DNA from: an archaeon
Lineage (GTDB): Archaea > Iainarchaeota > Iainarchaeia > Iainarchaeales > CSSED10-239
DNA length: 32,000 bases
Direction: 5' to 3'
Assembly: GCA_035400625.1 (NCBI GenBank)
Contig: DAOMZT010000003.1
Coordinates: 71,371-103,370, forward strand
Of this stretch, positions 3,870-32,000 are shown piece after piece. The first letter of the stretch is position 1; each line of letters starts with the position of its first letter. The notes beneath the pieces were generated by a model. It was not told where the DNA came from, made no database searches, and worked only from the letters and a program-made list of their open reading frames with translations. The position numbers and the translations under genes are program-made.

Positions 3870-4454
3870 ATGAATTTATACGAAATAAAAGAATTAGCTA
3901 AAAAGTCAGGAAAAGCAGTGTATTCTACAAGGCAATTATCTAATCTTATTTCTAAGGATAAACTGTCTACTGCTGTGTATGTGTCTAGACTTATAAAAGG
4001 AAAATTTGCAAAAAAATTGCAAAAAGGCACGATAAGCTTTACAGATAATGATTTTGTTATTGCCACTCAATTATATGAACCTGCTTATGTTTCTTTGGAT
4101 TCTGCATTGTTATTTCACAATCTAATAACGCAAGTTCCAAAAGACATAGATTGTATAACTACAATCAATAGTAAATATTTTAAGTCGCATAATATTTATT
4201 ATCATAAAATAAGTCCAAAGTTGTTTTTTGGTTTTAAAAAATATAAATTAGATAATAGCTATGCTTTTATTGCAGAACCAGAGAAAGCCACACTAGATGG
4301 GTTATATTATAATAAATATTCCATAGCTGATTTAGAAGAATGGTTATCAAAACTTAATTATACAAGATTAAAGAAATATTCAAAACTTTATAATTCAAAA
4401 ATACAAAATATGATTGAGAATGTTAGAAAAAGAAGAACTAAAAGAAATAGCTAA
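3870..4454 (+). CDS. AbiEi-like antitoxin / transcriptional regulator (type IV TA)
   Basis: N-terminal wHTH-like region followed by YEPAYVSLDSALLFHNLITQVP, resembling the AbiEi_4 signature (..yIS.esAL..hgl..q.p). Directly upstream of and overlapping an AbiEii-type gene. Confidence 0.7.
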   Translation: MNLYEIKELAKKSGKAVYSTRQLSNLISKDKLSTAVYVSRLIKGKFAKKLQKGTISFTDNDFVIATQLYEPAYVSLDSALLFHNLITQVPKDIDCITTINSKYFKSHNIYYHKISPKLFFGFKKYKLDNSYAFIAEPEKATLDGLYYNKYSIADLEEWLSKLNYTRLKKYSKLYNSKIQNMIENVRKRRTKRNS

Positions 4455-5229
4455 ACTAAAAGGTTTAACTTTATATCAACAGGAAAAACATTATGTTCAG
4501 TCATCGATATTAAGTATATTGTCAGATTACCCTTTAATCTTTAAAGGTGGTACATATCTTTGGTTTTTTCATGGCCTAAACAGGTTTTCAACAGATTTAG
4601 ATTTCACTTTAGAGATAGATAGATCAACGCCAAAAACATATTTAGATGTTGATATTTTTTCTAAACATATAACAGATAAAGTTTGTCAATCTCTGTGGCT
4701 GTTTCAAGGAATAAAAGCAACAGGAAAAATACAAAACACAACAACAAACAGTTTTTCTTTTAAGATTGCAGCAGAAGGCCCATTATATACTACTCCTAAT
4801 AGTTTGTGTTATGTTGATGTGGACATAAGTTTAAGAGAAAAAATAATTAATGTCCCAAAGCCATATAATTTAAATTTTCCAGAATATAATTTTCCAATAA
4901 AAATAATAAAAGGGATGGATGTAGAGGAAGTTTTTGCAGAAAAGATAAGAGCAATAATTACAAGAAAACCAGTAACAAAAAGCGAAAGAGATATTTATGA
5001 TCTTTGGTTTTTAATGTCAAAATATAATTTAAAGATAAATAAAGAAACTTTAAAATTAATAAATAAAAAACTTTCCTTTTATAAAATGAAATTTGATAAA
5101 AATGTATTTGATAAAAAATTAATTGAAAAAAAATCTAGTTTTAAGGATCTAAGTAATTTGATTTTTGGAGAATTAAAGGATTTCAATTATTATTATAAAT
5201 ACATACTAAACAATATATATGAAAAATAG
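4420..5229 (+). CDS. AbiEii/AbiGii-family nucleotidyltransferase toxin
   Basis: LIFKGGTYLWFFHGLNRFSTDLDFTL matches the AbiEii NTase motif (KGGTAL...R.S.DLDF). Also has a C-terminal ..AEKIRAIITR...RDIYDLWFL motif. ATG at 4420 is preferred over the TTG at 4414. Confidence 0.8.
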   Translation: MLEKEELKEIAKLKGLTLYQQEKHYVQSSILSILSDYPLIFKGGTYLWFFHGLNRFSTDLDFTLEIDRSTPKTYLDVDIFSKHITDKVCQSLWLFQGIKATGKIQNTTTNSFSFKIAAEGPLYTTPNSLCYVDVDISLREKIINVPKPYNLNFPEYNFPIKIIKGMDVEEVFAEKIRAIITRKPVTKSERDIYDLWFLMSKYNLKINKETLKLINKKLSFYKMKFDKNVFDKKLIEKKSSFKDLSNLIFGELKDFNYYYKYILNNIYEK

Positions 5230-16691: not shown

Positions 16692-17528
16692 GTGAAAATG
16701 ATGTTTGAGACTATTTTTGTAATTAGAATAATTCTGTTGTTAGTGGCAGTAGCTTTAGCAGCATATACTGACTATAAGACAGGATATATCTACGATTGGA
16801 TAAGTCTTCCTCTTATAGCTATTGGTCTGATCATAAATATCTTTACTTATCCTTTTAAAACTCTTATACCGATAATTCTAATTGCTGTAGGTATTTATCT
16901 TTTTGGATATTTTGCATATTATTTTGGAAAAATAGGTGGTGGCGACATAAAGCTGTTTATTGGAATACACTTGATTTTACCATATCTTAATAATCAATTA
17001 TTTATTTTTTGGGTAATTATTGTTTCTTCTTTACTATCAGTAATGTTTGTTTCAATTTCTTATGCAATTAAGCTTAATAAAAAAATAAAAATAAACAAAA
17101 GGCTTTTGAAAAAGAAAAAATCAAAGATCTTTAAATCTGTGATTTTATTTTTGGTGTTTTTAGTGTTTGTGATTTTTGCAACAAGTACTGGAGACATGCC
17201 AACAATTGTTCATATCACGATTCCTCCAATGTTTTTTGGTAGCATAATAATTATTTTTGAAGATGAGATTAAAAGGCATATTTACTTAAAGCAAAAACCA
17301 ATATCAAAACTTGAAGAAGGAGATGTCTTTGCTAGCGAGTTTGCAAAAAAAGAGCTAATTACAAAACTAAAATTAGGTAAAAGAACAGTTCTTGAAAAAG
17401 AAGACATAGCAAGAGCAAAATCATTAAAATTAAAAGCTCTTCCAATCTTTGATAATCTCCCAAGATTTGGGATATATATATTATTTGGAGTTTTGTGTGT
17501 TTTGATTTTTAGAAATTGGATATTTTAA
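16692..17528 (+). CDS. A24-family aspartic prepilin/preflagellin peptidase (PibD/FlaK/EppA-like)
   Basis: Polytopic membrane protein carrying both catalytic Asp motifs: AAYTDYKTGYIYDWISLPL and KIGGGDIKLF (GxGD). GTG start directly abuts the srp54 stop; in-frame ATGs at 16698 and 16701 are alternatives. Confidence 0.75.
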   Translation: MKMMFETIFVIRIILLLVAVALAAYTDYKTGYIYDWISLPLIAIGLIINIFTYPFKTLIPIILIAVGIYLFGYFAYYFGKIGGGDIKLFIGIHLILPYLNNQLFIFWVIIVSSLLSVMFVSISYAIKLNKKIKINKRLLKKKKSKIFKSVILFLVFLVFVIFATSTGDMPTIVHITIPPMFFGSIIIIFEDEIKRHIYLKQKPISKLEEGDVFASEFAKKELITKLKLGKRTVLEKEDIARAKSLKLKALPIFDNLPRFGIYILFGVLCVLIFRNWIF

Positions 17529-18931: not shown

Positions 18932-19102
18932 AAAATAGCACTCGTTTTTAAGATAGAGAAAATGTATTCTAATTTATGGAAATATAATTTATCAAATGGC
19001 TGGAGATTGACTTATACTATTCGTGGTGGAGAAATAGAAGTTATTTCTATAATTATTGAGTGGTTTTGCCATAAAAAGTATGAGAACAGATTTAAGTATT
19101 AA
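18932..19102 (+). pseudogene. N-terminally truncated RelE/ParE-like toxin remnant, paralog of the 31574-31924 gene
   Basis: Open frame FKIEKMYSNLWKYNLSNGWRLTYTIRGGEIEVISIIIEWFCHKKYENRFKY aligns with IKIPKEYISNYKINNLFRLELANYWRCLYSLVGENNKIEIIAFVIDCIDHNKYNKKFKY. It lacks about 65 N-terminal residues and has no partner antitoxin. Confidence 0.5.
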
Positions 19103-19508
19103 TTACTATTCTTAAAATTATTTCTTTACTACTAATTATTGTAACAATATTTTGAGATTCTAATTCTTTGTCATTACTCCAAAGAGGCGTTTTTAAAAAA
19201 TATGCAAGTGTAATAAAATCTATGTCATTTTTGTCTTTTATTTTATCTTCTGTATACTTAAAGAAATTTGAATATTTTTCTTTTGGGATAAATGAAACGA
19301 TTTTTTTAAGTAGATTTATTTGTTCATTAAATTCTTTTGTATTTATTTTTGTTTTTTTAATTATTTCTGATTTATATTTTAAAATCTCAGTAATTGCAAA
19401 TTCTGGAGAATAGATTTTAAATTGCTTAGATGTTATAATTTCTCTAGTCATTGAGTTTTTCCAAAAAAAAGAAAATAACACGTTAGTGTCTGCAACAATC
19501 TTTTTCAT
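19092..19508 (-). CDS. vapC: PIN-domain ribonuclease toxin (VapC-like)
   Basis: MKKIVADTNVLFSFF (first acidic PIN motif) and later SNDKEL. 138 aa. 4-nt overlap with the upstream small antitoxin gene. Confidence 0.8.
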   Translation of the reverse strand: MKKIVADTNVLFSFFWKNSMTREIITSKQFKIYSPEFAITEILKYKSEIIKKTKINTKEFNEQINLLKKIVSFIPKEKYSNFFKYTEDKIKDKNDIDFITLAYFLKTPLWSNDKELESQNIVTIISSKEIILRIVINT

Positions 19509-19741
19509 GAAATCAAACCTTCTTTTTTTAGTTGTTCGGCTCTATCTTTTCTAGATTTCTTTTGAAGATTGACCGCCCAATCACTAATTTCGCTTTCTTT
19601 TTCTAATAGTTGGTCTATTGCTTCTAATTTCTTTACTTTGTCAGCAATAGCTTTTCTAATAAATGATGACCAATTGATTTCATCGTATTTTTTCATTTTT
19701 TCTTTAATTTCTTTTGATACTGCTAAAGTTACACTTACCAT
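19505..19741 (-). CDS. vapB: VapB-like antitoxin (RHH/CopG-like N-terminus)
   Basis: MVSVTLAVSKEIKEKMKKYDEINWSSFIRKAIADKV resembles archaeal RHH antitoxins. ATGA-type overlap with the PIN gene. ATG at 19741 is preferred over 19813, because 19742-19809 contains a TATA-like tatataaa plus a cataatt direct repeat. Confidence 0.6.
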   Translation of the reverse strand: MVSVTLAVSKEIKEKMKKYDEINWSSFIRKAIADKVKKLEAIDQLLEKESEISDWAVNLQKKSRKDRAEQLKKEGLIS

Positions 19742-19809
19742 ATTTATCACATAATTGTGTTTATATACATAATTATGTTTAGATTGGTTTTTAATGATTT
19801 CTATTCCGC

Positions 19810-20505
19810 TCATAATAACTCCTTTTCTCTAAAGCTGAATATTTCTTTTTCTGAAATTATGACATGATCAATAAGTCGTATATCCATTAATTTTGCTGAT
19901 TTCTTTAATGCTTCTGTTGCCATCTTATCATCAATTGATGGCTCACATATGCCACTAGGGTGGTTATGAGCAATAATGATCCCATCTGCTCCGTGCCTCA
20001 TTGCCTCTAAGACAATATCTTTTGAAGAGATTAATGTTTGGTTGCTTGTTCCAGTTGTTATTGTTTTATAGTCTATGACATCGTTTCTTTGAGATAAGAA
20101 GATAGCTACAAGTTTTTCCTGTGTTATTCCAAAAAAAACATCAAACAAAAGATTATAGACATCTGTGGCAGAAATAATCTTTGTTTTCTCTTTTGGGCTG
20201 TTAAGTGTTTTCTTCTCAGAACTTAATATTCTTTTAGATATTTCAAAAACTGCTTTAATCTGGCAAGCTTTGACTTTTCCAATTCCCTTGATTTTCTCAA
20301 GTTCAGTTATTGGTATGTTTCCAATATCCTTAAGTGAGAATTTAGAAAATATTTCCTGACAGATGTCAATAACATTATTTTCTTTAGTCCCGGTCTTAAT
20401 AACAAGAGCCAGAAGCTCGGCTTGTGAAAGGCTTTCTGCTCCGCAATAGAGAAGTCTTTCAAGTGGCCTATTTTCGCAAGCCATTTCTTTTATTTTCATA
20501 GTCAT
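19810..20505 (-). CDS. radC: RadC-like JAB/MPN-domain protein
   Basis: N-terminal HhH-like region RPLERLLYCGAESLSQAELLALVIKTG. C-terminal JAMM motif IIAHNHPSGICEPSIDD. Confidence 0.9.
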   Translation of the reverse strand: MTMKIKEMACENRPLERLLYCGAESLSQAELLALVIKTGTKENNVIDICQEIFSKFSLKDIGNIPITELEKIKGIGKVKACQIKAVFEISKRILSSEKKTLNSPKEKTKIISATDVYNLLFDVFFGITQEKLVAIFLSQRNDVIDYKTITTGTSNQTLISSKDIVLEAMRHGADGIIIAHNHPSGICEPSIDDKMATEALKKSAKLMDIRLIDHVIISEKEIFSFREKELL

Positions 20506-20719: not shown

Positions 20720-21934
20720 ATGCGATATTCACATTCAAGAATAGAAACTTACAAAAGTTGTCCAAAAAAATTCTATTACCAGTATATAGAAAAACCAGAG
20801 ATTGAGGAAAAAAAGGGCATAGAGGCATTCTTAGGTTCTATGGTGCATCTGGCTTTGGAAAAGCTCTATAAAGATTTAAAATTTACAAAGCTTAATTCCC
20901 TAGAAGAAATATTAGAGTACTATTCAGAAGAATGGGAAAAGAATTATGATTTAACAATAGAGATTGTTAGGCAAGATTACACTCCAAAACACTACAAAGA
21001 AATGGGCAAGAAATTTCTAACAGAATACTACGAGAAATATCATCCTTTTGATGAAGGAAAGACAATTGCCCTAGAAATGGAAATTACCTTAAGGTTTATT
21101 GATGATTATGGAACTGCCTATGATCTGATAGGTTATATAGATAGGCTAACAATGATAAATGAAGAGCATTTTGAAATACATGATTACAAAACCAACAATG
21201 CTTTAAAGACCCAAGAAGAAGTAGATAAAGACAAACAGCTTGCTCTTTACACAATAGCCATAAAAAGAATGTATCCAACAGTTAAAAGAGTAGATCTTGT
21301 CTGGCATTTTCTAGCATTTAATATGGAAATGCGCTCTTCAAGAAGTGATAAAGATCTTGAAGTTCTAGAAAAAGAAGTAATCAATGTAATTCAAGAGATA
21401 GAAAGAAAGCAAATAACTAATGACTTTCCAACAAAAGAATCTGCTCTTTGCGATTGGTGTGCTTTTAAGGAAATTTGTCCTGTTAAGTCTCATGCCTTTA
21501 AGCTAAAAAAGTTGCCTGCTAACGAGTATCTAAATGATGATGGCGTTAAATTAGTTTCTGAATATCTAAAACTAACTAATGAAAAAAAAGATGTTCTTAG
21601 TAAGCTTGATCCAAAGCTGGAAAAGCTAAAAGAGGCTCTTGTCAATTATTCCAAAGCCAACAATTCTGAAAGGGTGTATGGTAAAGATGGCAATTCCATT
21701 TTAGTAAAAGAATATGAAAACTATTCAATTCCTGAAAAAGATACAAAAGAAAGAGAAGTCTTTGAAAGGCTATTAAAAGAAAATCATGTGTGGGAGATGA
21801 TAGCTGAAGTCAATTCTTTTAATTTCTCAAAGGCAGTTAATGATGGCCTTTTCTCTAAAGATTTCCTGAAAAGGCTAGAGCCCTTAATTTCTAAAGGCAA
21901 AACCACAAGGCTTTACCCAAGTTCTAAAAGGTAA
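20720..21934 (+). CDS. PD-(D/E)XK nuclease with Cas4/AddB-type Fe-S cysteine cluster and about 150 aa C-terminal extension
   Basis: YSHSRIETYKSCPKKFYYQYIE (N-terminal Cys), GYIDRL, EIHDYKT (D/ExK), QLALY (QxxxY), CDWCAFKEICP (CX2CX5C). Confidence 0.8.
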   Translation: MRYSHSRIETYKSCPKKFYYQYIEKPEIEEKKGIEAFLGSMVHLALEKLYKDLKFTKLNSLEEILEYYSEEWEKNYDLTIEIVRQDYTPKHYKEMGKKFLTEYYEKYHPFDEGKTIALEMEITLRFIDDYGTAYDLIGYIDRLTMINEEHFEIHDYKTNNALKTQEEVDKDKQLALYTIAIKRMYPTVKRVDLVWHFLAFNMEMRSSRSDKDLEVLEKEVINVIQEIERKQITNDFPTKESALCDWCAFKEICPVKSHAFKLKKLPANEYLNDDGVKLVSEYLKLTNEKKDVLSKLDPKLEKLKEALVNYSKANNSERVYGKDGNSILVKEYENYSIPEKDTKEREVFERLLKENHVWEMIAEVNSFNFSKAVNDGLFSKDFLKRLEPLISKGKTTRLYPSSKR

Positions 21935-24056: not shown

Positions 24057-24169
24057 TTGTTTAAAAGAAAACAATTATTTTCTTTTTCTTATTTTTCTCT
24101 TAAGGCTCTTACCAACACATTTTGTTAAAAACCACTCTATTTTTAAATTTGTGTTGGTATAACATATAT

Positions 24170-25045
24170 ATGGTTTCAGTAATAAAAAAGAAAAAAGGCA
24201 CGAAAAAAGCCTATTATCTACATATGACCTTAAGATCTAAAAAAGGCTATAAGAATCTTGACAAATATATAGGTATGGAGTTACCAACAGACCTTAGAAC
24301 ACAAAAATTAGATTTCTTTATTTCTTCTCAACAAGAACAGTTAGAGAAGATATCTGAACAAATATCTAAGCAAAATACTCAAAAATCAAAAATACCAAAA
24401 ACTGTTCAGGAAAATCAAATGTTTGATTTTGCTGTAAAATTTACATATAATACAAGCAGAATAGAAGGAAATACCCTAAGCCTAAAAGACTCTTATCTTT
24501 TGCTTAAAGATCAGATTTCTCCTCAAAAGCCTATGCGAGACATTAAGGAGATAGAATCTCATCAGAAGTTGTTTTTAGAACTTATTAAAAAAAGCCAAAA
24601 GATAAGTTATCAAAATCTAATAAATTGGCATTATTATTTATTTAAAGATACAAAAAAAGACATAGCAGGAAAGATCAGAAATTATCAAGTAGGTATATCT
24701 GGTTGTAAGTTTTTGCCTCCTAGCCCTGCAGAGCTTTCAGCAGAAATAAGTGATTTCTTTAAGTGGTATGATAAAAATAAATCAAAATACAATCCTGTTA
24801 TTCTTGCAGGATTAGTGCATTTAAGACTAGTTACGATACATCCTTTTGGTGATGGCAATGGCAGAATTACAAGATTATTAATGAACATTATTTTAAATAA
24901 CAACAATTGTCCTCTTTTTATTATTGATTATAAAAACAAAAAAAGCTATTATTCGGCATTAGAGAGATCACAAGTAAAAGAAGATGATTCTTATTTTTTA
25001 AGTTGGTTTCTTAAAAGCTATTTAGTTTTTATAAAACATAAATAA
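24170..25045 (+). CDS. fic: Fic-domain protein (probable AMPylase), class II-like with internal inhibitory motif
   Basis: Fic core HPFGDGNGRITR (HxFx[DE]GNGRxxR). Upstream TSRIEG matches [ST]xxxE[GN]. ATG at 24170 lies directly after tatata and may be leaderless. Confidence 0.9.
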   Translation: MVSVIKKKKGTKKAYYLHMTLRSKKGYKNLDKYIGMELPTDLRTQKLDFFISSQQEQLEKISEQISKQNTQKSKIPKTVQENQMFDFAVKFTYNTSRIEGNTLSLKDSYLLLKDQISPQKPMRDIKEIESHQKLFLELIKKSQKISYQNLINWHYYLFKDTKKDIAGKIRNYQVGISGCKFLPPSPAELSAEISDFFKWYDKNKSKYNPVILAGLVHLRLVTIHPFGDGNGRITRLLMNIILNNNNCPLFIIDYKNKKSYYSALERSQVKEDDSYFLSWFLKSYLVFIKHK

Positions 25046-25092: not shown

Positions 25093-25656
25093 TTATTCAA
25101 GAACATAGTTTCTCTTTATTTCTTCTAAAGTAGCAGATACAAATTTTTCTATATCTATTCCTAGAGTTTTCTCACACAAATATATCTGTTCTCTATTGAC
25201 TGCTGCAGCGAAATATTTATCTTTTAGTTTCTTAAGAATAGACTTTGTTTCTGCTTTAGAGATGTCTTTGTCAGGTCTCATCAAGACACATGCTCTGATT
25301 ATACCTGTTAGCCCATCAAGAGAATATAGTGCATTTCTCAAGTCGCTATTTCTTTTGACACCTACTGCCTCATTATGGCTTTTGATATCCTCTATCAGTT
25401 CTTGGTTAATGCCTTTCTCTTGTAAAATCTTTTCAGTAACAAGAGTGTGCTTGTTTATGTCTTCTCCAAAGCATTCAAGGTCAAGATCATGAAGTAGCCC
25501 AAGCACAAAAGCATATTCTTGTTCTTTTTCTGGCAAGTTAAGAAGTTTAGAGATTCCAAGAAGCCCATAGCCGACAAGAAAAGAATGATCAAGATTAGCT
25601 TTTTCTTTAATATGTTCTTTAAGCAAAGAAATTGCTTGTGTTTTATTTGGTATCAT
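25093..25656 (-). CDS. HD-domain metal-dependent phosphohydrolase
   Basis: ANLDHSFLVG ... LGLLHDLD gives the H...HD motif. Length is 187 aa. Confidence 0.8.
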   Translation of the reverse strand: MIPNKTQAISLLKEHIKEKANLDHSFLVGYGLLGISKLLNLPEKEQEYAFVLGLLHDLDLECFGEDINKHTLVTEKILQEKGINQELIEDIKSHNEAVGVKRNSDLRNALYSLDGLTGIIRACVLMRPDKDISKAETKSILKKLKDKYFAAAVNREQIYLCEKTLGIDIEKFVSATLEEIKRNYVLE

Positions 25657-25680: not shown

Positions 25681-27582
25681 TCAATAATCTTGTAATTCTT
25701 CTAGATTACCTATATTATAAAATGTTTCAGGAGAACTTTGATTATTATATTCTGTTTTTATCCATTCTGCGCTTTTATTTTTATTTCTATATTGTATTTC
25801 GTCTAATACCCCATCCAAATTATATAACATATATCTTCTACCTATTTGATTAAAATATATTTTTGCAGGTGTTGTTGTGTTTGCTGTTGTTATTCCTATA
25901 TTTTCTCCATCTACATACACATTGAAATCTCTAATGTCTGTAATGCTTCTTTCTATATTTATTAGATGCCATCCTGTCTCATTCCCTCCATGATTCCACA
26001 CTAATGATTTATATCCTGTTCCATAATACATAAGCCAGGAAGAATCATTATCTAAATATCTGAACCCCCCATCTCCACTTCCTTGGCCTCCTATTATATA
26101 GTCAGCCCCACTTATTCCTTCGATTCCATTTATCCAAAAGCTCACAGATACAACTTCTACTGCATTTTTCATTACTGCATAATCATCTGTTCCATCGAAA
26201 TCCTGTGCATATCCGATTTTTCCAATTATTTGATTAGGCTCATTTGCTCCTTTTTTTGTCACATCGTTTTCAAATGCCGTACTATCTAACATTGTGCTAT
26301 TTGTTTTATCATTCATATGATATACTGCGTTGTAATCGCTATTCCAAACATCTTTATCATTGCTGTTGCTCTCAGTTTTATCCCCAAAATACATATAGAA
26401 GTTAGTGTCTGCTGTAGAGGAAAGTTCAGGTATCTTTACCCAAGCGACAAGCGTTCCTGTTTCTGAATTATAATCTTCAATTTCTCTTTTTAGTCTAGTA
26501 GTTCCATCAGAGAGTGTAAAATAAATATCGCTTCCATCGCTTTGTGCAAAACTAGTAAGATTAACATCTGTCAATTTAATTAATATTGGAAAATTTGTAA
26601 GTGTTGATTCAACTTTAGTGTGGTTAATTGTTATTTTTTTTCTAAATAAATTAATATCTGTAAAGCTTTCAATTTCTCTTTTTAGTCTTGTAGTGCCATC
26701 ACTAGATGTAAAATAAATATCAGACCCATCTTCTTTAGCAAGAGATACAAGGTTCTCATCTCTAATTGAGATTAATACAGGAAAATCAGTTAGATTGTCA
26801 TCTACTTTTTTATGATCAATAGTGATTTTTTTTCTATAAATGATTTGGATTAATTTAATATATTTTCTACTTGTGATTGCACTTTCTGCATAGCCATTAG
26901 CATAGCCTCTTGTTTTTATTGTTGCACTGTCTGTTATTGTGAATGGTCTGGTATATGGAATTGAACTTTCTGTTGGCTCACTGCCGTCAAGTGTGTAATA
27001 GATATTTGCATCTTCTGGTGTTGCATTTATCGTTATATTTAATTCGCCAATAAAAGTACTAATCTTAGGATTGATAGTAAAGTACACTTGCCCAAGATAT
27101 GGCGTGATAGAAACAACAGGGATGTTGTTAACTATGTCTATTATAGTTAATCTTAAGGGATAATTTCCATTTACTACAACTGTTTTTTCTAAAGTAACAA
27201 CGCCATCAAGATATAAAGTAAAAGTCATTAGTCCATTTGCTTTGATAATGGAAAGATTACCGATATTGCTGTCTTTAAAGTTTTTAAAAGTATTACTTGA
27301 TATTTTCTGCTTAATATAAACTGCGTTAGTTTTTTCATCAAAAACAATCTCATCTACAACATCAAGATTTAGGTTTTTAAAAGTATCAATGTCGTTAGTC
27401 TTTAATTCTGCAAATTCTTTGTTAATCAAAATCAGGTTTTCTTTATTCTGGTTAAATTTCATTTCTTCTCTTAGAGATGTAAAGAACGGCAAAACAAATC
27501 CAATAATAATTATCATTGCAGTAACAGACAACAGTATTATCATAATACTAGTAAAAATTACATTTGCACCTTTGCTATTCAT
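25681..27582 (-). CDS. Type IV pilin-like (class III signal peptide) surface protein: CHB_HEX_C-like domain + DUF2341-like repeats + ConA/LamG domain
   Basis: ATGA overlap with the upstream gene gives N-terminus MNSKG|ANVIFTSIMIILLSVTAMIIII. IYYTLDGSEPTESSIPYTRPFTITDSATIKTRGY is the chitobiase C-terminal-like motif. Two RKKITI.H.KV...DGSDIYFT.SDGTTRLKREIE units follow, ending VAWVKIPELSSTADTNFYMYFGD. LamG features: FDGTDDY, SFW, YVDG, GVLDEIQY, WIKTEYNNQSSPETFY. Confidence 0.75.
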   Translation of the reverse strand: MNSKGANVIFTSIMIILLSVTAMIIIIGFVLPFFTSLREEMKFNQNKENLILINKEFAELKTNDIDTFKNLNLDVVDEIVFDEKTNAVYIKQKISSNTFKNFKDSNIGNLSIIKANGLMTFTLYLDGVVTLEKTVVVNGNYPLRLTIIDIVNNIPVVSITPYLGQVYFTINPKISTFIGELNITINATPEDANIYYTLDGSEPTESSIPYTRPFTITDSATIKTRGYANGYAESAITSRKYIKLIQIIYRKKITIDHKKVDDNLTDFPVLISIRDENLVSLAKEDGSDIYFTSSDGTTRLKREIESFTDINLFRKKITINHTKVESTLTNFPILIKLTDVNLTSFAQSDGSDIYFTLSDGTTRLKREIEDYNSETGTLVAWVKIPELSSTADTNFYMYFGDKTESNSNDKDVWNSDYNAVYHMNDKTNSTMLDSTAFENDVTKKGANEPNQIIGKIGYAQDFDGTDDYAVMKNAVEVVSVSFWINGIEGISGADYIIGGQGSGDGGFRYLDNDSSWLMYYGTGYKSLVWNHGGNETGWHLINIERSITDIRDFNVYVDGENIGITTANTTTPAKIYFNQIGRRYMLYNLDGVLDEIQYRNKNKSAEWIKTEYNNQSSPETFYNIGNLEELQDY

Positions 27583-28082
27583 ATTCTGCACTCCACACAG
27601 TCTATGTTAATTAAAATCTGATCGTTTTCTTCAATATATTCTTGATATTTGATATTTAGTGTTGTTTTGTTAGATATAATAAAGTCATTACAATCAAGCA
27701 CTAGTCTTTTATATTTGTTTAGATTATATTCAAAATACATAATGTTATTGTTCTTATATGTTGCTATCTCATTAATCACAACAATTTCATCTTTATATTT
27801 GCCAAAGTAATCTATTTCTCCAGTTATAATGTTGTTATTACAATCAATTATTATTTCTCCTGGGCTTTTCACTACAAGCTCTATGTCCTTTTTATCATCT
27901 ACCACATCTTCTACTGTGCTTTTGATAGATGTTATGTTTTTAAGCATTATATCATAATTACTTTTTTCCTTAACATTGCCAAATAGTTCTGTTGCTGAAA
28001 GAGTAACAACTCCAAGTATAACTACTGCAATAAGTATGTAAATTAATGTGCTAATGACTGTTGATAATCCTTTTTGGTTCAT
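27579..28082 (-). CDS. Small archaeal type IV pilin-like protein
   Basis: MNQKG|LSTVISTLIYILIAVVILGVV is a near-consensus archaeal pilin N-terminus (short basic leader, G, then the hydrophobic S.VI.TL.. helix). 4-nt overlaps on both sides. Confidence 0.65.
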   Translation of the reverse strand: MNQKGLSTVISTLIYILIAVVILGVVTLSATELFGNVKEKSNYDIMLKNITSIKSTVEDVVDDKKDIELVVKSPGEIIIDCNNNIITGEIDYFGKYKDEIVVINEIATYKNNNIMYFEYNLNKYKRLVLDCNDFIISNKTTLNIKYQEYIEENDQILINIDCVECRI

Positions 28083-31054
28083 GATTTTTCTAAAACTCCA
28101 ATAGCTATATTTACATTATTTCCATCATTAATATTATGATTGCTAATATTAGCATCAGGGTTTCCAAAATACATATATATTCCGGTACTTGCATTAGTGG
28201 TTGTTTGTGTAGTATCAATAATCACATTAGCATCTGCCATCTCTCCAACAGAATAGAAGTTTTCAGGAGAGCTTTGATTATTATATTCTGTTTTTATCCA
28301 TGACTCTGAACGCAAAATATCAGAAATACGCACCTCATCTAATAGCCCATTAAAATACCCACCTTTTCCCATTTTTAGATAATAGGGGCTAGATACAGAT
28401 AATGGATCAGTTTCGCCAGTGCTAGTGCTTATATTTCTTACAACACCATTAGTATAGAGTTTTAAAGCATCAGCCCATGCTGTCTGATCACTATCATATG
28501 TAAAAGAATAATAATACCATGTATCTGTGTCTGAAAATGCGTTATAATGGGCTCCATATTTGTTATTTCCTATAGATAATAATAATCTATAATTATTAGT
28601 GTGTTGATTTAAAGCAAAGTTATTATTTGTCCAATATTGGGAACCTAAAATCTGATCTCCTGGCGAACCAGCTGCTTTTTTGAAGTTTACCCAAAAAGAA
28701 ATTGTTGCTTTAGTATAAGAAACATTAGTAATTGGTGTTGTAATTTCCCCCCTCTTATTCCCATTAAAATATTGTGCATAACCAATTTTTCCATTTATTT
28801 GAGTGGGTGGGTAATTTCCTGATTTTGTTGCATTTGCTAATCCTGTTTTACTTTCTTTTATAGAATTATCATTGTAATCATTATTGTGCCAAACCCCAAC
28901 ATAATTATCGTCCCAAACATCTGTGTCGTTGCTGTTGCTTTCATTTTCATCTCCAAAGTACACATAGATGTCTGTGTCTGCTGTAGAGGAAAGTTCCGGT
29001 ATCTTTACCCAAGCAACAAGATTAGTTGCTATATCTTCTAGAGCCCCAACAGAATAAAAGTCTTCAGGAGAGCTTTGATTATTATATTCTGTTTTTATCC
29101 AAGCATCTGATCGTAAAGTGGTAGATATTCTTAATTCGTCGATACCTCCTAAAAAATACTCATAACGTGTAGGAGGTTCACAACCATAACTTCTTCCTAA
29201 AAATAAATCACTATTGTCTATATCTGTTGTTCTAGAAACAGCAACAGATCTTTTAAAAACCCCGTCAATAAATAAATTTAGAGTGTTTTTATCATAAGTC
29301 CAAGTTACTAAGCTCCAATCATTCAATTTGAGATCATTACTTTTTGTAAAGTGAAATCCAGGAGAGGGGCTTCCCCCTCCTAAATACAAACCAAAATTAT
29401 TACCATTATAAATAACAATATAATTAGAAGAAATATTCCCTTTGCCTGTTCTTGTTGCTCTTCTTTGATTTGTAAAATTCTTATTTATCCAATGAGAATA
29501 TGTTATATAACCTCCAATAGTTGGTTGTTTTATTTGAATATAATCATTTATTCCATCTAAAAGAACCGAATTTCCTATTTTGCCAGAAACACCAGTATTT
29601 GAGTTTTCATCAAAACTGAAATTTTTTAATTGCCCAGTCATATTATTTATTGTGGAATCAAAAAATGCATTTGTATCATTTGTTTTTACATTTTCTGTGA
29701 AATGCATAACGGTTGCATAATTTACATCCCAAACATCTGTGTCGTTGCTGTTGCTCTCTGTTTTATCCCCAAAATATATATAGAAGTTAGTGTCTGCAGT
29801 TGAGGAAAGACTTGGTATCTTTACCCAAGCAACAAGTGTTCCTGTTTCTGAATTGTAATCTTCAATTTCTCTTTTGAGCTTTGGGTGTCCATTATCTATT
29901 GCAAAGTAAATATCTGATCCGTCTTCTTTTGCATATGTCGCAAGATCGCTATCAGTTATACTGATCAATACAGGAAAATCAACTAGATCTTCATCAACTT
30001 TTATATGATCAATAGTAATCTTCTTTCTAAATAAATTAATATCTGTAAAGCTTTCAATTTCTCTTTTTAGTCTTGTTGTTCCATCTGAGAGTGTAAAATA
30101 AATATCAGACCCGTCTTCTTTAGCAAGAGATACAAGGTTCTCATCTCTAATTGAGATTAATACAGGAAAATCAACTAGATCTCCATCAACTTTAGCATGA
30201 TTAATAGTAATCTTCTTTCTTGTCTTTTCTTCATAAGTATAAACATTAACATCTTTTCCAACATTAAAACTAGGAATTGTTAGTAAAACAGTAAGTTCTC
30301 CTGTCTCGTGATCATAATCTGTGATTTTCTTCTTAAGCTTAGTTACTCCATCAGAAAGAGTAAACAAAAGATCAGAGCCGTCATTGTTAGCAAAGTTTTT
30401 AAGATCTTCATCAGTTAATGTGATTGTTACAGGGACATTATTTAAATTTCCTAAGACATTACCACTATTAATCAATATCTTTTTTCTGTATTTCCAGTTT
30501 CCTGCATTTTCATCATAGATATATTCGTTCTTTTGTGTATACCAAGAAGCACTAGTTTCATTATCTACAGAAACAGAAATCTTATTTTCAGTAATCTTCT
30601 TAAAGACAAGCCTTGCCTGTTCTTTGTTATTAAGTGTAATGCTTCTTATCAAATCAATATTTTCAAAAGCAACTCCTGAACAAACCTTTTGTAATACCCT
30701 GTAAGAATATTTGTTATTATCTTCTTCTAATCTTTTACCATCTGCAAAAAATTTCAGATTTTTGCCAACAAAACAAACTTCTATAGTTTCAGTATCACTA
30801 TCAACTACCAGTTCAAGATTAGAAAGAGAGAAATTAATCTCTTTAGTTGCTTCAATTGGAGAATTATAGGTTTCCATAATTGCAGAAAAGACAAGATCTC
30901 TAACTTTAATAGAATTATCATAGTTTAGCTTTTCTTTGCTTTTGGAAAGTTGAGAGCTTACTCCTGTAATAATTATTCCAACAACAATTACCATAATAAG
31001 CATTATAATTATAGTACTAATTATCTCATTTACTGCTTTTTTGCTTTTTATCAT
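28079..31054 (-). CDS. Giant type IV pilin-like surface protein: 3 DUF2341-like units + LamG + orphan DUF2341 fragment + second LamG
   Basis: MIKSKKA|VNEIISTIIIMLIMVIVVGIII N-terminus. Repeated ..KKITI.H.KVD.DLVDFPVLISI.D..L...AKEDGSDIYF...G...LKREIE units. Two ConA/LamG-type modules each end in (D/I)E(L/V)RIS..LRS..WIKTEYNNQSSPE.FYSVG. Confidence 0.75.
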   Translation of the reverse strand: MIKSKKAVNEIISTIIIMLIMVIVVGIIITGVSSQLSKSKEKLNYDNSIKVRDLVFSAIMETYNSPIEATKEINFSLSNLELVVDSDTETIEVCFVGKNLKFFADGKRLEEDNNKYSYRVLQKVCSGVAFENIDLIRSITLNNKEQARLVFKKITENKISVSVDNETSASWYTQKNEYIYDENAGNWKYRKKILINSGNVLGNLNNVPVTITLTDEDLKNFANNDGSDLLFTLSDGVTKLKKKITDYDHETGELTVLLTIPSFNVGKDVNVYTYEEKTRKKITINHAKVDGDLVDFPVLISIRDENLVSLAKEDGSDIYFTLSDGTTRLKREIESFTDINLFRKKITIDHIKVDEDLVDFPVLISITDSDLATYAKEDGSDIYFAIDNGHPKLKREIEDYNSETGTLVAWVKIPSLSSTADTNFYIYFGDKTESNSNDTDVWDVNYATVMHFTENVKTNDTNAFFDSTINNMTGQLKNFSFDENSNTGVSGKIGNSVLLDGINDYIQIKQPTIGGYITYSHWINKNFTNQRRATRTGKGNISSNYIVIYNGNNFGLYLGGGSPSPGFHFTKSNDLKLNDWSLVTWTYDKNTLNLFIDGVFKRSVAVSRTTDIDNSDLFLGRSYGCEPPTRYEYFLGGIDELRISTTLRSDAWIKTEYNNQSSPEDFYSVGALEDIATNLVAWVKIPELSSTADTDIYVYFGDENESNSNDTDVWDDNYVGVWHNNDYNDNSIKESKTGLANATKSGNYPPTQINGKIGYAQYFNGNKRGEITTPITNVSYTKATISFWVNFKKAAGSPGDQILGSQYWTNNNFALNQHTNNYRLLLSIGNNKYGAHYNAFSDTDTWYYYSFTYDSDQTAWADALKLYTNGVVRNISTSTGETDPLSVSSPYYLKMGKGGYFNGLLDEVRISDILRSESWIKTEYNNQSSPENFYSVGEMADANVIIDTTQTTTNASTGIYMYFGNPDANISNHNINDGNNVNIAIGVLEKS

Positions 31055-31154: not shown

Positions 31155-31227
31155 GGTCCGAATAGTGTAGTGGTTAGCATAGAGGACTGTGGATCCTCTG
31201 ACTCGGGTTCAAATCCCGGTTCGGACC
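31155..31227 (+). tRNA. tRNA-His (GTG) with genome-encoded G-1 pairing with C73; no encoded CCA
   Basis: Manual cloverleaf. G-1 + acceptor gtccgaa/ttcggac, D arm gtgt/gcat, anticodon arm gagga-ctGTGga-tcctc, T arm tcggg-ttcaaat-cccgg, discriminator C. Confidence 0.9.
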
Positions 31228-31311
31228 TTTTTTCTAAATCTCTAAAGTTTAGGATTTAAAAAAGGATTAGAGGAGATTTTTAAAAAACAAATATAATAAT
31301 CAGATAATATC

Positions 31312-31581
31312 ATGAGTAATAAAATAGGCACCAATGCTATAAATTTAATAGCTATAGAGAAAGAAATTAGAAAAGATTATGTTGGTATTATTCCAAAAGC
31401 AAAATTACGCTCAAAATTAAAAAACATAAAACTTTCTGATTTTAATAATATAATTAGATATTTAGAATTAAGCAATCAGATATATGTTAGTGAAAAAGGC
31501 ATTGTTTGGATACAAAATGATAATAAACAGTTAAGAACTATATTATCAGATTGTAAAAGAAAAGGAAGAATTTATGAATAA
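31312..31581 (+). CDS. Candidate antitoxin (small wHTH-like protein) paired with RelE/ParE-like toxin
   Basis: 89 aa. 8-nt overlap with the downstream toxin-like gene. No recognised family; the call rests on TA-like gene geometry. Confidence 0.45.
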   Translation: MSNKIGTNAINLIAIEKEIRKDYVGIIPKAKLRSKLKNIKLSDFNNIIRYLELSNQIYVSEKGIVWIQNDNKQLRTILSDCKRKGRIYE

Positions 31582-31924
31582 AAAAGTAGTAATTGTTTAT
31601 TCTAAAGATGTAGAAAAAACATTAGAATATTTAATTGCTACAAAAGAAAATAACAAGATAAACAAATCAATTTATAATTCTTTTATGTCTAAATTAGAAT
31701 TGATAAAGAACAACCCGACATGTGGTGATAAAATCCCTCAAATAAAGATACCAAAAGAGTATATTTCAAATTATAAGATAAATAATTTGTTTAGATTAGA
31801 ATTAGCAAACTATTGGAGATGTTTATATTCTCTTGTTGGCGAAAATAATAAAATTGAGATAATTGCTTTTGTAATTGATTGTATAGATCATAACAAATAC
31901 AATAAGAAATTCAAATACAAATAA
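31574..31924 (+). CDS. RelE/ParE-superfamily-like toxin
   Basis: C-terminal LFRLELANYWRCLYSLVGENNKIEIIAFVIDCIDHNKYNKKF follows the RelE/ParE pattern (l.e.r...yRliY.i.....i.il.i.hr..vY). Has a decayed paralog at 18932-19102. Confidence 0.55.
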   Translation: MNKKVVIVYSKDVEKTLEYLIATKENNKINKSIYNSFMSKLELIKNNPTCGDKIPQIKIPKEYISNYKINNLFRLELANYWRCLYSLVGENNKIEIIAFVIDCIDHNKYNKKFKYK

Positions 31925-31926
31925 AT

Positions 31927-32000
<74 letters not shown>

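Follow-up and report, generated by a model that had tools for sequence, protein, structure and literature searches.

Three paralogous type IV pilin-like proteins with variable DUF2341/LamG cargo in an archaeon of the Iainarchaeota

We analysed a 32,000-nucleotide stretch of DNA from an archaeon of the Iainarchaeota (the window; NCBI GenBank assembly GCA_035400625.1, contig DAOMZT010000003.1, positions 71,371 to 103,370 of the forward strand) and focused on an operon of three genes, A, B and C, with the products P1, P2 and P3. Our preferred interpretation, to which we assign a probability of about 0.62, is that P1, P2 and P3 are paralogous type IV pilin-like proteins and together form a cargo-bearing minor-pilin complex with recombining recognition cassettes; such a trio would probably serve as a surface attachment device. 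An earlier note, made from the letters of the sequence alone, had described three translationally coupled genes with pilin-type N-termini and large DUF2341/LamG regions. The analysis goes beyond that note in three respects, namely the paralogy of the N-terminal modules, the conserved order of the genes, and the swapping of cargo between strains and species.

The three genes lie on the minus strand (positions are those of the window; lengths are in amino acids, aa):
28079-31054, minus strand: gene A, encoding P1 (991 aa), a pilin module followed by a linker, a DUF2341 array and two LamG domains (open reading frame, Pfam, AlphaFold2 (AF2) model).
27579-28082, minus strand: gene B, encoding P2 (167 aa), a bare pilin-like protein with the leader MNQKG, a long α1 helix, a β head and four cysteines (open reading frame, ATGA overlap, AF2 model).
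25681-27582, minus strand: gene C, encoding P3 (633 aa from the ATG), a pilin module followed by CHB_HEX_C, a DUF2341 half-unit and full unit, and LamG (open reading frame, Pfam).

The coupling by ATGA stop/start overlaps that had been reported for these genes can be read directly in the DNA, at 28082 to 28079 between genes A and B and at 27582 to 27579 between genes B and C. The open reading frame listing also offers a GTG start for P3 at 27591; because the homologues begin with MNSKG, we prefer the ATG at 27582.

All three proteins start with a leader of 5-7 residues that ends in K-G or K-A and is followed by a hydrophobic stretch of about 20 residues (MIKSKKA/VNEIIS in P1, MNQKG/LSTVIS in P2 and MNSKG/ANVIF in P3, the slash marking the predicted cleavage site). 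Processing of archaeal prepilins calls for G, A or S at position -1, a charged residue at position -2, and a site ahead of a hydrophobic domain (PMC4371748), and this is what P1 (KA/VN), P2 (KG/LS) and P3 (KG/AN) display. K or R at -2 and G, A or S at -1 stand in register before the hydrophobic stretch in 15 of 15 aligned family sequences; the class III signal claimed for all three proteins is borne out, and the conserved cleavage context whose absence from homologues would have counted against it is present. In a six-frame scan of the window, no real genes other than those of P1-P3 had a K/R-G/A site ahead of a hydrophobic domain. Scans for the class III pattern are approximate, as a loose pattern flagged ordinary Sec signals and a strict one misses members with Q in the helix. 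The motif is of the archaeal type, and direct reading of P1-P3 found no bacterial IPR012902 methylation motif (G/FTLIE-type).

Relatives with the same motif bring the family closer to known pilins. N-terminal fragments of such proteins gave sub-threshold matches to Pilin_N and DUF7289 in Pfam and NCBIfam (for Pilin_N, E 0.013 in P0016 and E 3e-4 in P0053), and the precomputed Pfam annotation of two Methanomicrobiales homologues, P0053 and P0056, combines Pilin_N (PF07790) with DUF2341 and Laminin_G_3. Searched against all sequences of the PDB, the profile of the P2 module gave six matches, every one a type IV pilin aligned from mature residue 1-2, at weak E values (0.13-1.7); the profiles of the P1 and P3 modules gave noise, with weak matches to PilE1 and a Pilin_N protein among those for P1. 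Overall, support for pilin-like N-termini in P1-P3 is good but not conclusive.

The N-terminal portions of P1 and P3 are delimited as follows, the boundary of the module being marked by orthologues that consist of the bare module:
30563-31054, minus strand: P1 pilin module A (aa 1-164), with the leader MIKSKKA, predicted cleavage after A7, an α1 helix at 6-63 and a β head at 70-163.
27088-27582, minus strand: P3 pilin module C (aa 1-165), with the leader MNSKG and a hydrophobic helix, kept in the L005, L006, L008 and L015 orthologues.
30497-30562, minus strand: P1 linker (aa 165-186), with an AF2 confidence (predicted local distance difference test, pLDDT) below 50 at 165-170, 172-178 and 181-184.

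Judged by sequence comparison, the N-terminal modules of P1, P2 and P3, each of about 165 aa, are paralogues across their full length. With hhalign, module B (P2) aligned to module A over 174 columns (probability 97.3%, E 1.8e-11) and to module C over 152 columns (probability 95.3%, E 2.3e-8); the pilin modules of P1 and P3 are about 20% identical as proteins. AF2 models were made for P1 and P2. The five models of P1 agree with one another (mean pLDDT 76-79) and place a helix at residues 6-63 and β strands at 70-163, with block pLDDT values of about 77-94 over residues 11-160, and the best model of P2 (pLDDT 84) has a helix at 3-63 and ten strands. In both proteins the predicted helix runs about 30 residues beyond the membrane-spanning part. 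With its low-pLDDT linker between pilin module and DUF2341/LamG region, P1 has the layout by which modular pilins are recognised (PMC8179133), as does P3, in which the pilin module is followed by CHB_HEX_C, DUF2341 and LamG. P2 contains four cysteines (C81, C131, C162 and C165), of which C81 and C131 are invariant across module-B orthologues and the C-terminal CxxC occurs only in bare versions of module B, a pattern suggestive of disulfide bonds or a metal site in the head.

Beyond the pilin module, P1 and P3 carry the following cargo:
29732-30496, minus strand: P1 DUF2341 array (aa 187-441), with a full unit at 187-277, an N-terminal half-unit at 278-341 and a full unit at 342-441 (Pfam, motif map).
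29027-29731, minus strand: P1 LamG domain 1 (aa 442-676), with the best Laminin_G_3 stretch at 500-653 (Pfam, Foldseek).
28220-29026, minus strand: P1 orphan DUF2341 C-terminal half (aa 677-716) and LamG domain 2 (aa 717-945), the second Laminin_G_3 stretch.
28082-28219, minus strand: P1 C-terminal tail (aa 946-991), a leftover DUF2341 strand (IYMYFGNPDANISN...VLEKS).
26860-27057, minus strand: P3 CHB_HEX_C_1 / Fn3_assoc domain (aa 176-241; Pfam E 1e-14 and 1.5e-14).
25684-26838, minus strand: remaining P3 cargo, a DUF2341 half-unit at 249-312, a full unit at 313-412 and LamG at 413-633 (Pfam, with LamG sub-threshold, and alignment to P1).

In P1, Pfam matched Laminin_G_3 (PF13385; E 7.5e-28, 98 bits) and DUF2341 (PF10102; E 7.3e-14), each in two stretches. 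DUF2341 also matched P3 (E 4.9e-9), and the scores of 52.4 bits in P1 and 37.0 bits in P3 compare with a cut-off of 23.4. The cargo that had been described for P1 is present in full; for P3, the DUF2341 and chitobiase-type domains are confirmed, and the Laminin_G_3 score of 25.8 bits falls just below the cut-off of 27.6, even though residues 250-630 align to the DUF2341-LamG cassette at 279-675 of P1 with 48.6% identity (E 7e-101). The DUF2341 units of P1 can be followed by their motifs, RKKI.I at 189, 279 and 342 and DGSD at 225, 314 and 378, with LVAWVKIP at 679, IYVYFG at 696 and TEYNNQSSPE at 922 further on. Pfam found no match in P2, no catalytic glycoside-hydrolase domain in P1, P2 or P3, and no PilY1 β-propeller (IPR008707) in any of the three. 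With the P1 model as query, Foldseek found neurexin LNS and laminin LG domains (E 1e-10), the Hc receptor-binding domains of clostridial neurotoxins and, as the best single-domain match, carbohydrate-binding domain 4 of the GH43 (glycoside hydrolase family 43) arabinanase AbnA, at a template-modelling (TM) score of 0.78. The LamG jelly-roll fold is common to protein-binding and glycan-binding domains, and on the strength of the model it is plausible that the cargo binds a ligand, be it glycan or protein.

The operon was compared with related loci. The order A-B-C, for which a survey of synteny in related genomes had been suggested, is constant in every related locus examined, and the protein lengths are as follows:
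window: A 991, B 167, C 633 aa.
L001: A 991, B 167, C 877 aa as called (later start codon).
L004: A 991, B 167, C 569 aa.
L005: A partial, B 171, C 1716 aa.
L017: A 999, B up to 200, C about 1720 aa.
L006: A 831, B 1113, C 1807 aa.
L008: A 847, B 619, C 183 aa.
L015: A 181, B 176, C 327 aa.

Across these loci A ranges over 181-999 aa, B over 167-1113 aa and C over 183-1807 aa. Since each module is found both bare and loaded, it is a self-contained domain, with the cargo as an add-on. The cargo also changes in kind and in carrier. NHL-repeat arrays with LamG take the place of DUF2341 with LamG in gene C of L005 and L006, and in L006 and L008 the P2-type module runs directly into the W-x-x-R-x-K-I start of a DUF2341 unit, so that module B bears DUF2341/LamG cargo. 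The NHL-repeat array of the two gene C relatives (L005, 1418-6568; L006, 15884-21307) is very long and apparently sits inside a LamG-like domain, with LamG-like sequence on both sides of the repeats. In L006 the cargo of module B exceeds 900 residues, which makes it unlikely that the trio forms the bulk subunit of a filament.

Turnover of the same sort is visible among strains. The database count puts an identical P2 on 13 contigs, the longest of 813 kb, and a contig look-up found it on 23; P3 alleles of 569, 633 and 877 aa occur beside it. The 569-aa allele has exactly one DUF2341 half-unit fewer than the form in the window; in the 877-aa allele a further tail-plus-LamG unit is attached through a unique junction sequence that the 633-aa form does not have. 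We considered whether these length variants are assembly artefacts and rejected this, since the junction of the 877-aa form is unique and the repeats are 74-86% identical, which makes their collapse unlikely. The P1 gene itself is a patchwork: DUF2341 N-terminal parts start at 189, 279 and 342, of which those at 189 and 342 are full and that at 279 is without C-terminal strands, and orphan C-terminal pieces stand at 677-716 and in the final tail at 959. The split halves (aa 278-341, 677-716 and 946-991) may be recombination scars, or nested insertions that complement each other in three dimensions. Gene A homologues of 305-999 aa share the N-terminal module; among the short ones, P0204 (305 aa) has one DUF2341 unit followed by the same tail as P1, and P0253 (490 aa) combines a single DUF2341 with a single LamG, and the tail of P0204 suggests that cargo cassettes were inserted into an ancestral short A-type protein. 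DUF2341 segments of P1 and P3 are 78-86% identical as DNA (26341-26835 vs. 29726-30220), and the comparisons fit a gain, loss and exchange of cassettes through the repeated DUF2341 segments.

The carrier and the cargo seem to differ in distribution. A profile search for the module family returned at least 17 proteins, the large family members being left out, and a pattern-limited scan placed it in at least 2 of 185,579 species-representative genomes; going by these counts, the module family seems narrow. An exact-DNA search in species-representative genomes gave no match. As a cassette, the DUF2341+LamG unit of P1 (about 342-676) is very common: 21,006 cluster representatives matched it at E ≤ 0.001, 2,297 of them at E ≤ 1e-30, and proteins longer than 7,000 aa contained as many as 27 matching stretches. 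As had been supposed, such cargo is usually not attached to a pilin: a pilin-type N-terminus is found, among the top representatives, almost exclusively in the family of the trio (by the strict pattern, which is approximate), and in the closer match list it occurs in near relatives, two Methanomicrobiales proteins and one bacterial protein. The bacterial protein, P0037 (1587 aa), combines a canonical prepilin N-terminus (RG/FTILELL) with DUF2341 and LamG, and the same cargo was therefore grafted onto pilins independently in bacteria.

A candidate for the processing enzyme is encoded 8 kb from the operon, as the earlier note had pointed out:
16692-17528, plus strand: Peptidase_A24 (PibD/FlaK-like; Pfam E 2.2e-12), with D27 and GGGD at 82-85.

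Members of the PibD/FlaK family have a two-aspartate active site, which D27 and the GGGD motif fit. P2 carries a Joint Genome Institute (JGI) label as a FlaF/FlaG-family protein; we rejected this assignment, as P2 has no Arch_flagellin match in Pfam and there are no archaellum genes in the approximately 52 kb that we read (the window and about 10 kb on each side).

From these observations a sequence of events can be proposed. The preproteins would be inserted into the membrane by the Sec/signal recognition particle pathway, and the A24 peptidase would remove the class III leader after K-G/A, exposing a long hydrophobic N-terminal helix that bears a small β head. The three helices may then bundle into a heterotrimeric minor-pilin complex, located either at the tip of a filament whose machinery and major pilin are encoded elsewhere or in a short stalk rooted in the membrane. 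From modules A and C, flexible linkers would hang the DUF2341 β-sandwiches, the LamG jelly rolls and the CHB_HEX_C domain, and the ligands of this cargo could be glycans or proteins of a host cell or of another surface. Recombination in the DUF2341 repeats would add, delete or swap cassettes, so that strains would come to differ in binding specificity around an unchanged carrier trio. In a bolder version, A-B-C would correspond in archaea to the minor-pilin tip complex of bacteria, as a conserved heterotrimer of paralogues priming or capping a type IV filament, and would be a universal adaptor for fast-evolving DUF2341/LamG, CHB_HEX_C and NHL cassettes in DPANN-type archaea, setting the specificity for host or surface strain by strain; we put this forward tentatively, as possible and not as probable.

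Several results weigh against the minor-pilin interpretation. The earlier note had proposed a search with the Pfam Pilin_N model (PF07790), and this gave zero matches to P1, P2 or P3, whether whole or as N-terminal fragments; NCBIfam, run on the isolated N-termini, gave a faint UpsA match for P2 only (E 0.006-0.09). The six-frame scan found no candidate major pilin in the window. Only one of the five AF2 models of P2 was confident, the other four being poor, and a Foldseek search of the P2 model against the PDB found no solved pilin alike (best E 0.037, TM below 0.2, with a faint Ig-like resemblance). The window was known to have no assembly ATPase or platform gene, and we found neither a PilB/FlaI-type (T2SSE) ATPase nor a TadC/PilC/FlaJ (T2SSF) platform gene within the approximately 52 kb; likewise, no pilus machinery was detected within 10 kb of the trio in the seven related loci checked, L005, L006, L008, L015 and L017 among them. 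Finally, it is the fold, and the fold only, that points to ligand binding. Set against the missing machinery, stand-alone pilin genes or operons distant from it are common in archaea (PMC4858521), and type IV pilus systems are frequent in DPANN genomes (PMC5498576; 10.64898/2026.04.22.720090); with the genome read over approximately 52 kb, we infer display of the trio on a filament.

The absence of an ATPase and a platform, here and beside any related trio, would also be expected if the proteins were adhesins or binding proteins tethered to the membrane at the cell surface and took no part in a filament, the class III N-terminus, cleaved or not, acting as an anchor and the proteins working singly or in a short surface assembly. 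Sulfolobus bindosome sugar-binding proteins and FlaF/FlaG would be the analogues, class III signals are documented on non-filament archaeal substrate-binding proteins (PMC4371748; 10.64898/2026.04.22.720090), and both the JGI label and the want of a solved pilin resembling P2 lean the same way. A conserved, ordered trio of paralogous long-helix modules is, however, more typical of pilins that assemble together, distance from machinery is, as noted, ordinary for archaeal pilin operons, and the missing Arch_flagellin match speaks against a FlaF/FlaG relationship; we regard tethering as rather unlikely. A further alternative, in which the N-termini are ordinary uncleaved signal-anchor helices, their pilin likeness is coincidental and the operon consists of three adjacent DUF2341/LamG-type surface proteins, draws on the lack of significant matches of the window proteins to Pilin_N or any pilin family and on the Sec-type or other N-termini of most DUF2341+LamG proteins. 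It is very improbable given the K/R-G/A/S pair at a fixed position in all 15 aligned sequences, the extension of the predicted helix past the membrane-spanning part, the occurrence of all three modules in bare versions, which makes each a domain in its own right, and the fact that every PDB profile match of module B is a pilin.

A different function is conceivable for the same proteins, namely the capture or degradation of polysaccharides for nutrition and not host attachment, with LamG and CHB_HEX_C as carbohydrate-binding modules that hold a polymer at the surface. CHB_HEX_C_1 and Fn3_assoc are typical of accessory regions of glycoside hydrolases, the best structural match of a single domain is to the carbohydrate-binding domain of AbnA, genes for GH130, mannose-phosphate isomerase and phosphomannomutase lie about 8 kb past the end of the window, and the window encodes several ATP-binding cassette (ABC) substrate-binding proteins. 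Nevertheless, P1-P3 have no catalytic glycoside-hydrolase domain, the cargo of relatives is replaced by NHL β-propeller arrays that do not resemble carbohydrate-binding modules, and turnover of cargo at the level of strains suits variable partners better than a fixed polymer, all of which makes a nutritional role improbable. The cargo-bearing minor-pilin complex remains the interpretation that we prefer.

Comparison with published systems places the trio among known bacterial modular pilins in kind, and it is not a wholly new system. The earlier note knew of nothing comparable; this does not hold, as the modular pilins of Streptococcus sanguinis, the DUF2341 adhesins of Methanococcus and the LamG expansion of Mia14 have been published, and P0053 and P0056 are present in databases. 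What stands of its interpretation are the class III N-termini, the pilin-like layout and a cargo with ligand-binding folds. By analogy, the closest functional counterpart is PilA/PilB/PilC of S. sanguinis, experimentally characterised modular pilins with a ConA-like lectin module in a three-pilin tip complex (PMC9934059, PMC8179133). Both sets comprise three minor pilins, one small (PilA, like P2) and two large and modular; in both, a linker joins the cargo to a short pilin module, one cargo belongs to the ConA-like lectin/LamG superfamily, and adhesion at the tip is proposed. The S. sanguinis proteins differ in being bacterial, with the IPR012902 motif and Glu5, in belonging to a complete pil locus with ATPase and platform, and in having no reported mutual paralogy or swapping of cargo between strains; they are also experimentally proven, whereas the archaeal trio is predicted throughout. 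The published catalogue of modular pilins was built on the bacterial motif, and archaea are outside its coverage (PMC8179133).

Among archaea, a study of 2016 described large DUF2341 proteins encoded in type IV pilus loci and predicted that they act as tip adhesins (PMC4858521), and one such protein of the Methanococcus maripaludis epd locus was hit in a transformation screen (PMC10133366, which names the DUF2341 protein MMJJ_08210). These Methanococcus Epd proteins (MJ1470-type, arCOG03508) share with the trio their archaeal origin, DUF2341 and a predicted role at the tip; going by their description, they lie inside a machinery locus and are proposed to be PilY1-like non-pilin adhesins beside separate minor pilins, whereas in the trio the pilin modules carry DUF2341/LamG as a direct fusion and the operon stands far from any machinery. 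That published prediction rested on pilus loci in which ATPase and TadC genes are present (PMC4858521); neither in the window nor in L005, L006, L008, L015 and L017 were these genes found close to the trio. The DPANN archaeon Mia14 shows a LamG-like expansion, partly tied to type IV pilus loci, reported in 2017 (PMC5498576): its LamG jelly rolls are proposed for interaction with the host and some lie beside pilus genes, and the paper describes no pilin fusion, paralogous carrier modules or cassette swapping, the likeness being one of description. GspI-GspJ-GspK and HIJK (as summarised in PMC9934059) are likewise small, conserved, co-encoded sets of minor pilins, thought to nucleate and cap the filament, with one enlarged subunit; they differ from the trio in having no detectable sequence relationship to it, subunits that are not obviously paralogous to one another, and cargo that is not hypervariable. 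PibD-processed archaeal sugar-binding proteins are, like P1 and P3, large and equipped with a prepilin-type N-terminus, and they bind sugar, but their cargo is of the ABC solute-binding type and they have a dedicated ATPase/platform pair and no conserved trio. Three features of the present system appear to be new: the paralogous, order-conserved carrier trio, a module without an existing family model, and the plug-in character of the cargo with its variation among strains.

The surroundings of the operon can be described briefly. The window has about 30% G+C, and archaeal housekeeping genes in the region include those for L31e, eIF-6, prefoldin, SRP54, FtsY and archaeosine TGT. The organism is likely to have a small genome of DPANN type. 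One gene follows the trio closely on the same strand:
25093-25656, minus strand: HD-domain gene (187 aa; Pfam HD E 8.7e-5), 24 nt downstream of gene C.

The same HD gene also follows gene C in L005, L006 and L017, and not in L008 or L015; it may be co-transcribed with gene C. On its other side the operon adjoins a tRNA-His (31155-31228), with a tRNA-Thr at 31927-32000. Between the tRNAs lie two small plus-strand genes at 31312-31581 (89 aa) and 31574-31924 (116 aa), which overlap by 8 nt, are kept in every strain contig and are without a Pfam match; their layout resembles a toxin-antitoxin pair. Past the tRNA-Thr the strains (L001-L004, L012-L014) diverge: most have a ResIII helicase and an N6_N4 methyltransferase, in what looks like a type III restriction-modification system, and GCA_029563035.1 carries a phage-integrase island in addition. 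In L015 an integrase lies directly upstream of the trio. The region beside the operon looks like an integration hotspot. Genes of defence or mobile type also occur around the operon (19092-20505, 20720-21934 and 24122-25045), encoding a PIN and ribbon-helix-helix pair, RadC, a PD-(D/E)XK/Cas4-like nuclease and Fic, and AbiEii-like genes lie at 4414-5229.

Little is known of the means by which DPANN-type archaea recognise hosts or surfaces and attach to them, and the trio bears on this question. We know of no archaeal pilus tip complex that has been characterised. The natural series of bare and loaded modules gives exact domain boundaries for studies of expression and binding. If the interpretation is true, the operon would provide an archaeal test case of the modular-pilin principle, which has so far been catalogued only in bacteria. 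If the trio carries swappable binding modules, these would be candidate determinants of specificity that are easily found, can be compared across strains, and may be matched to hosts.

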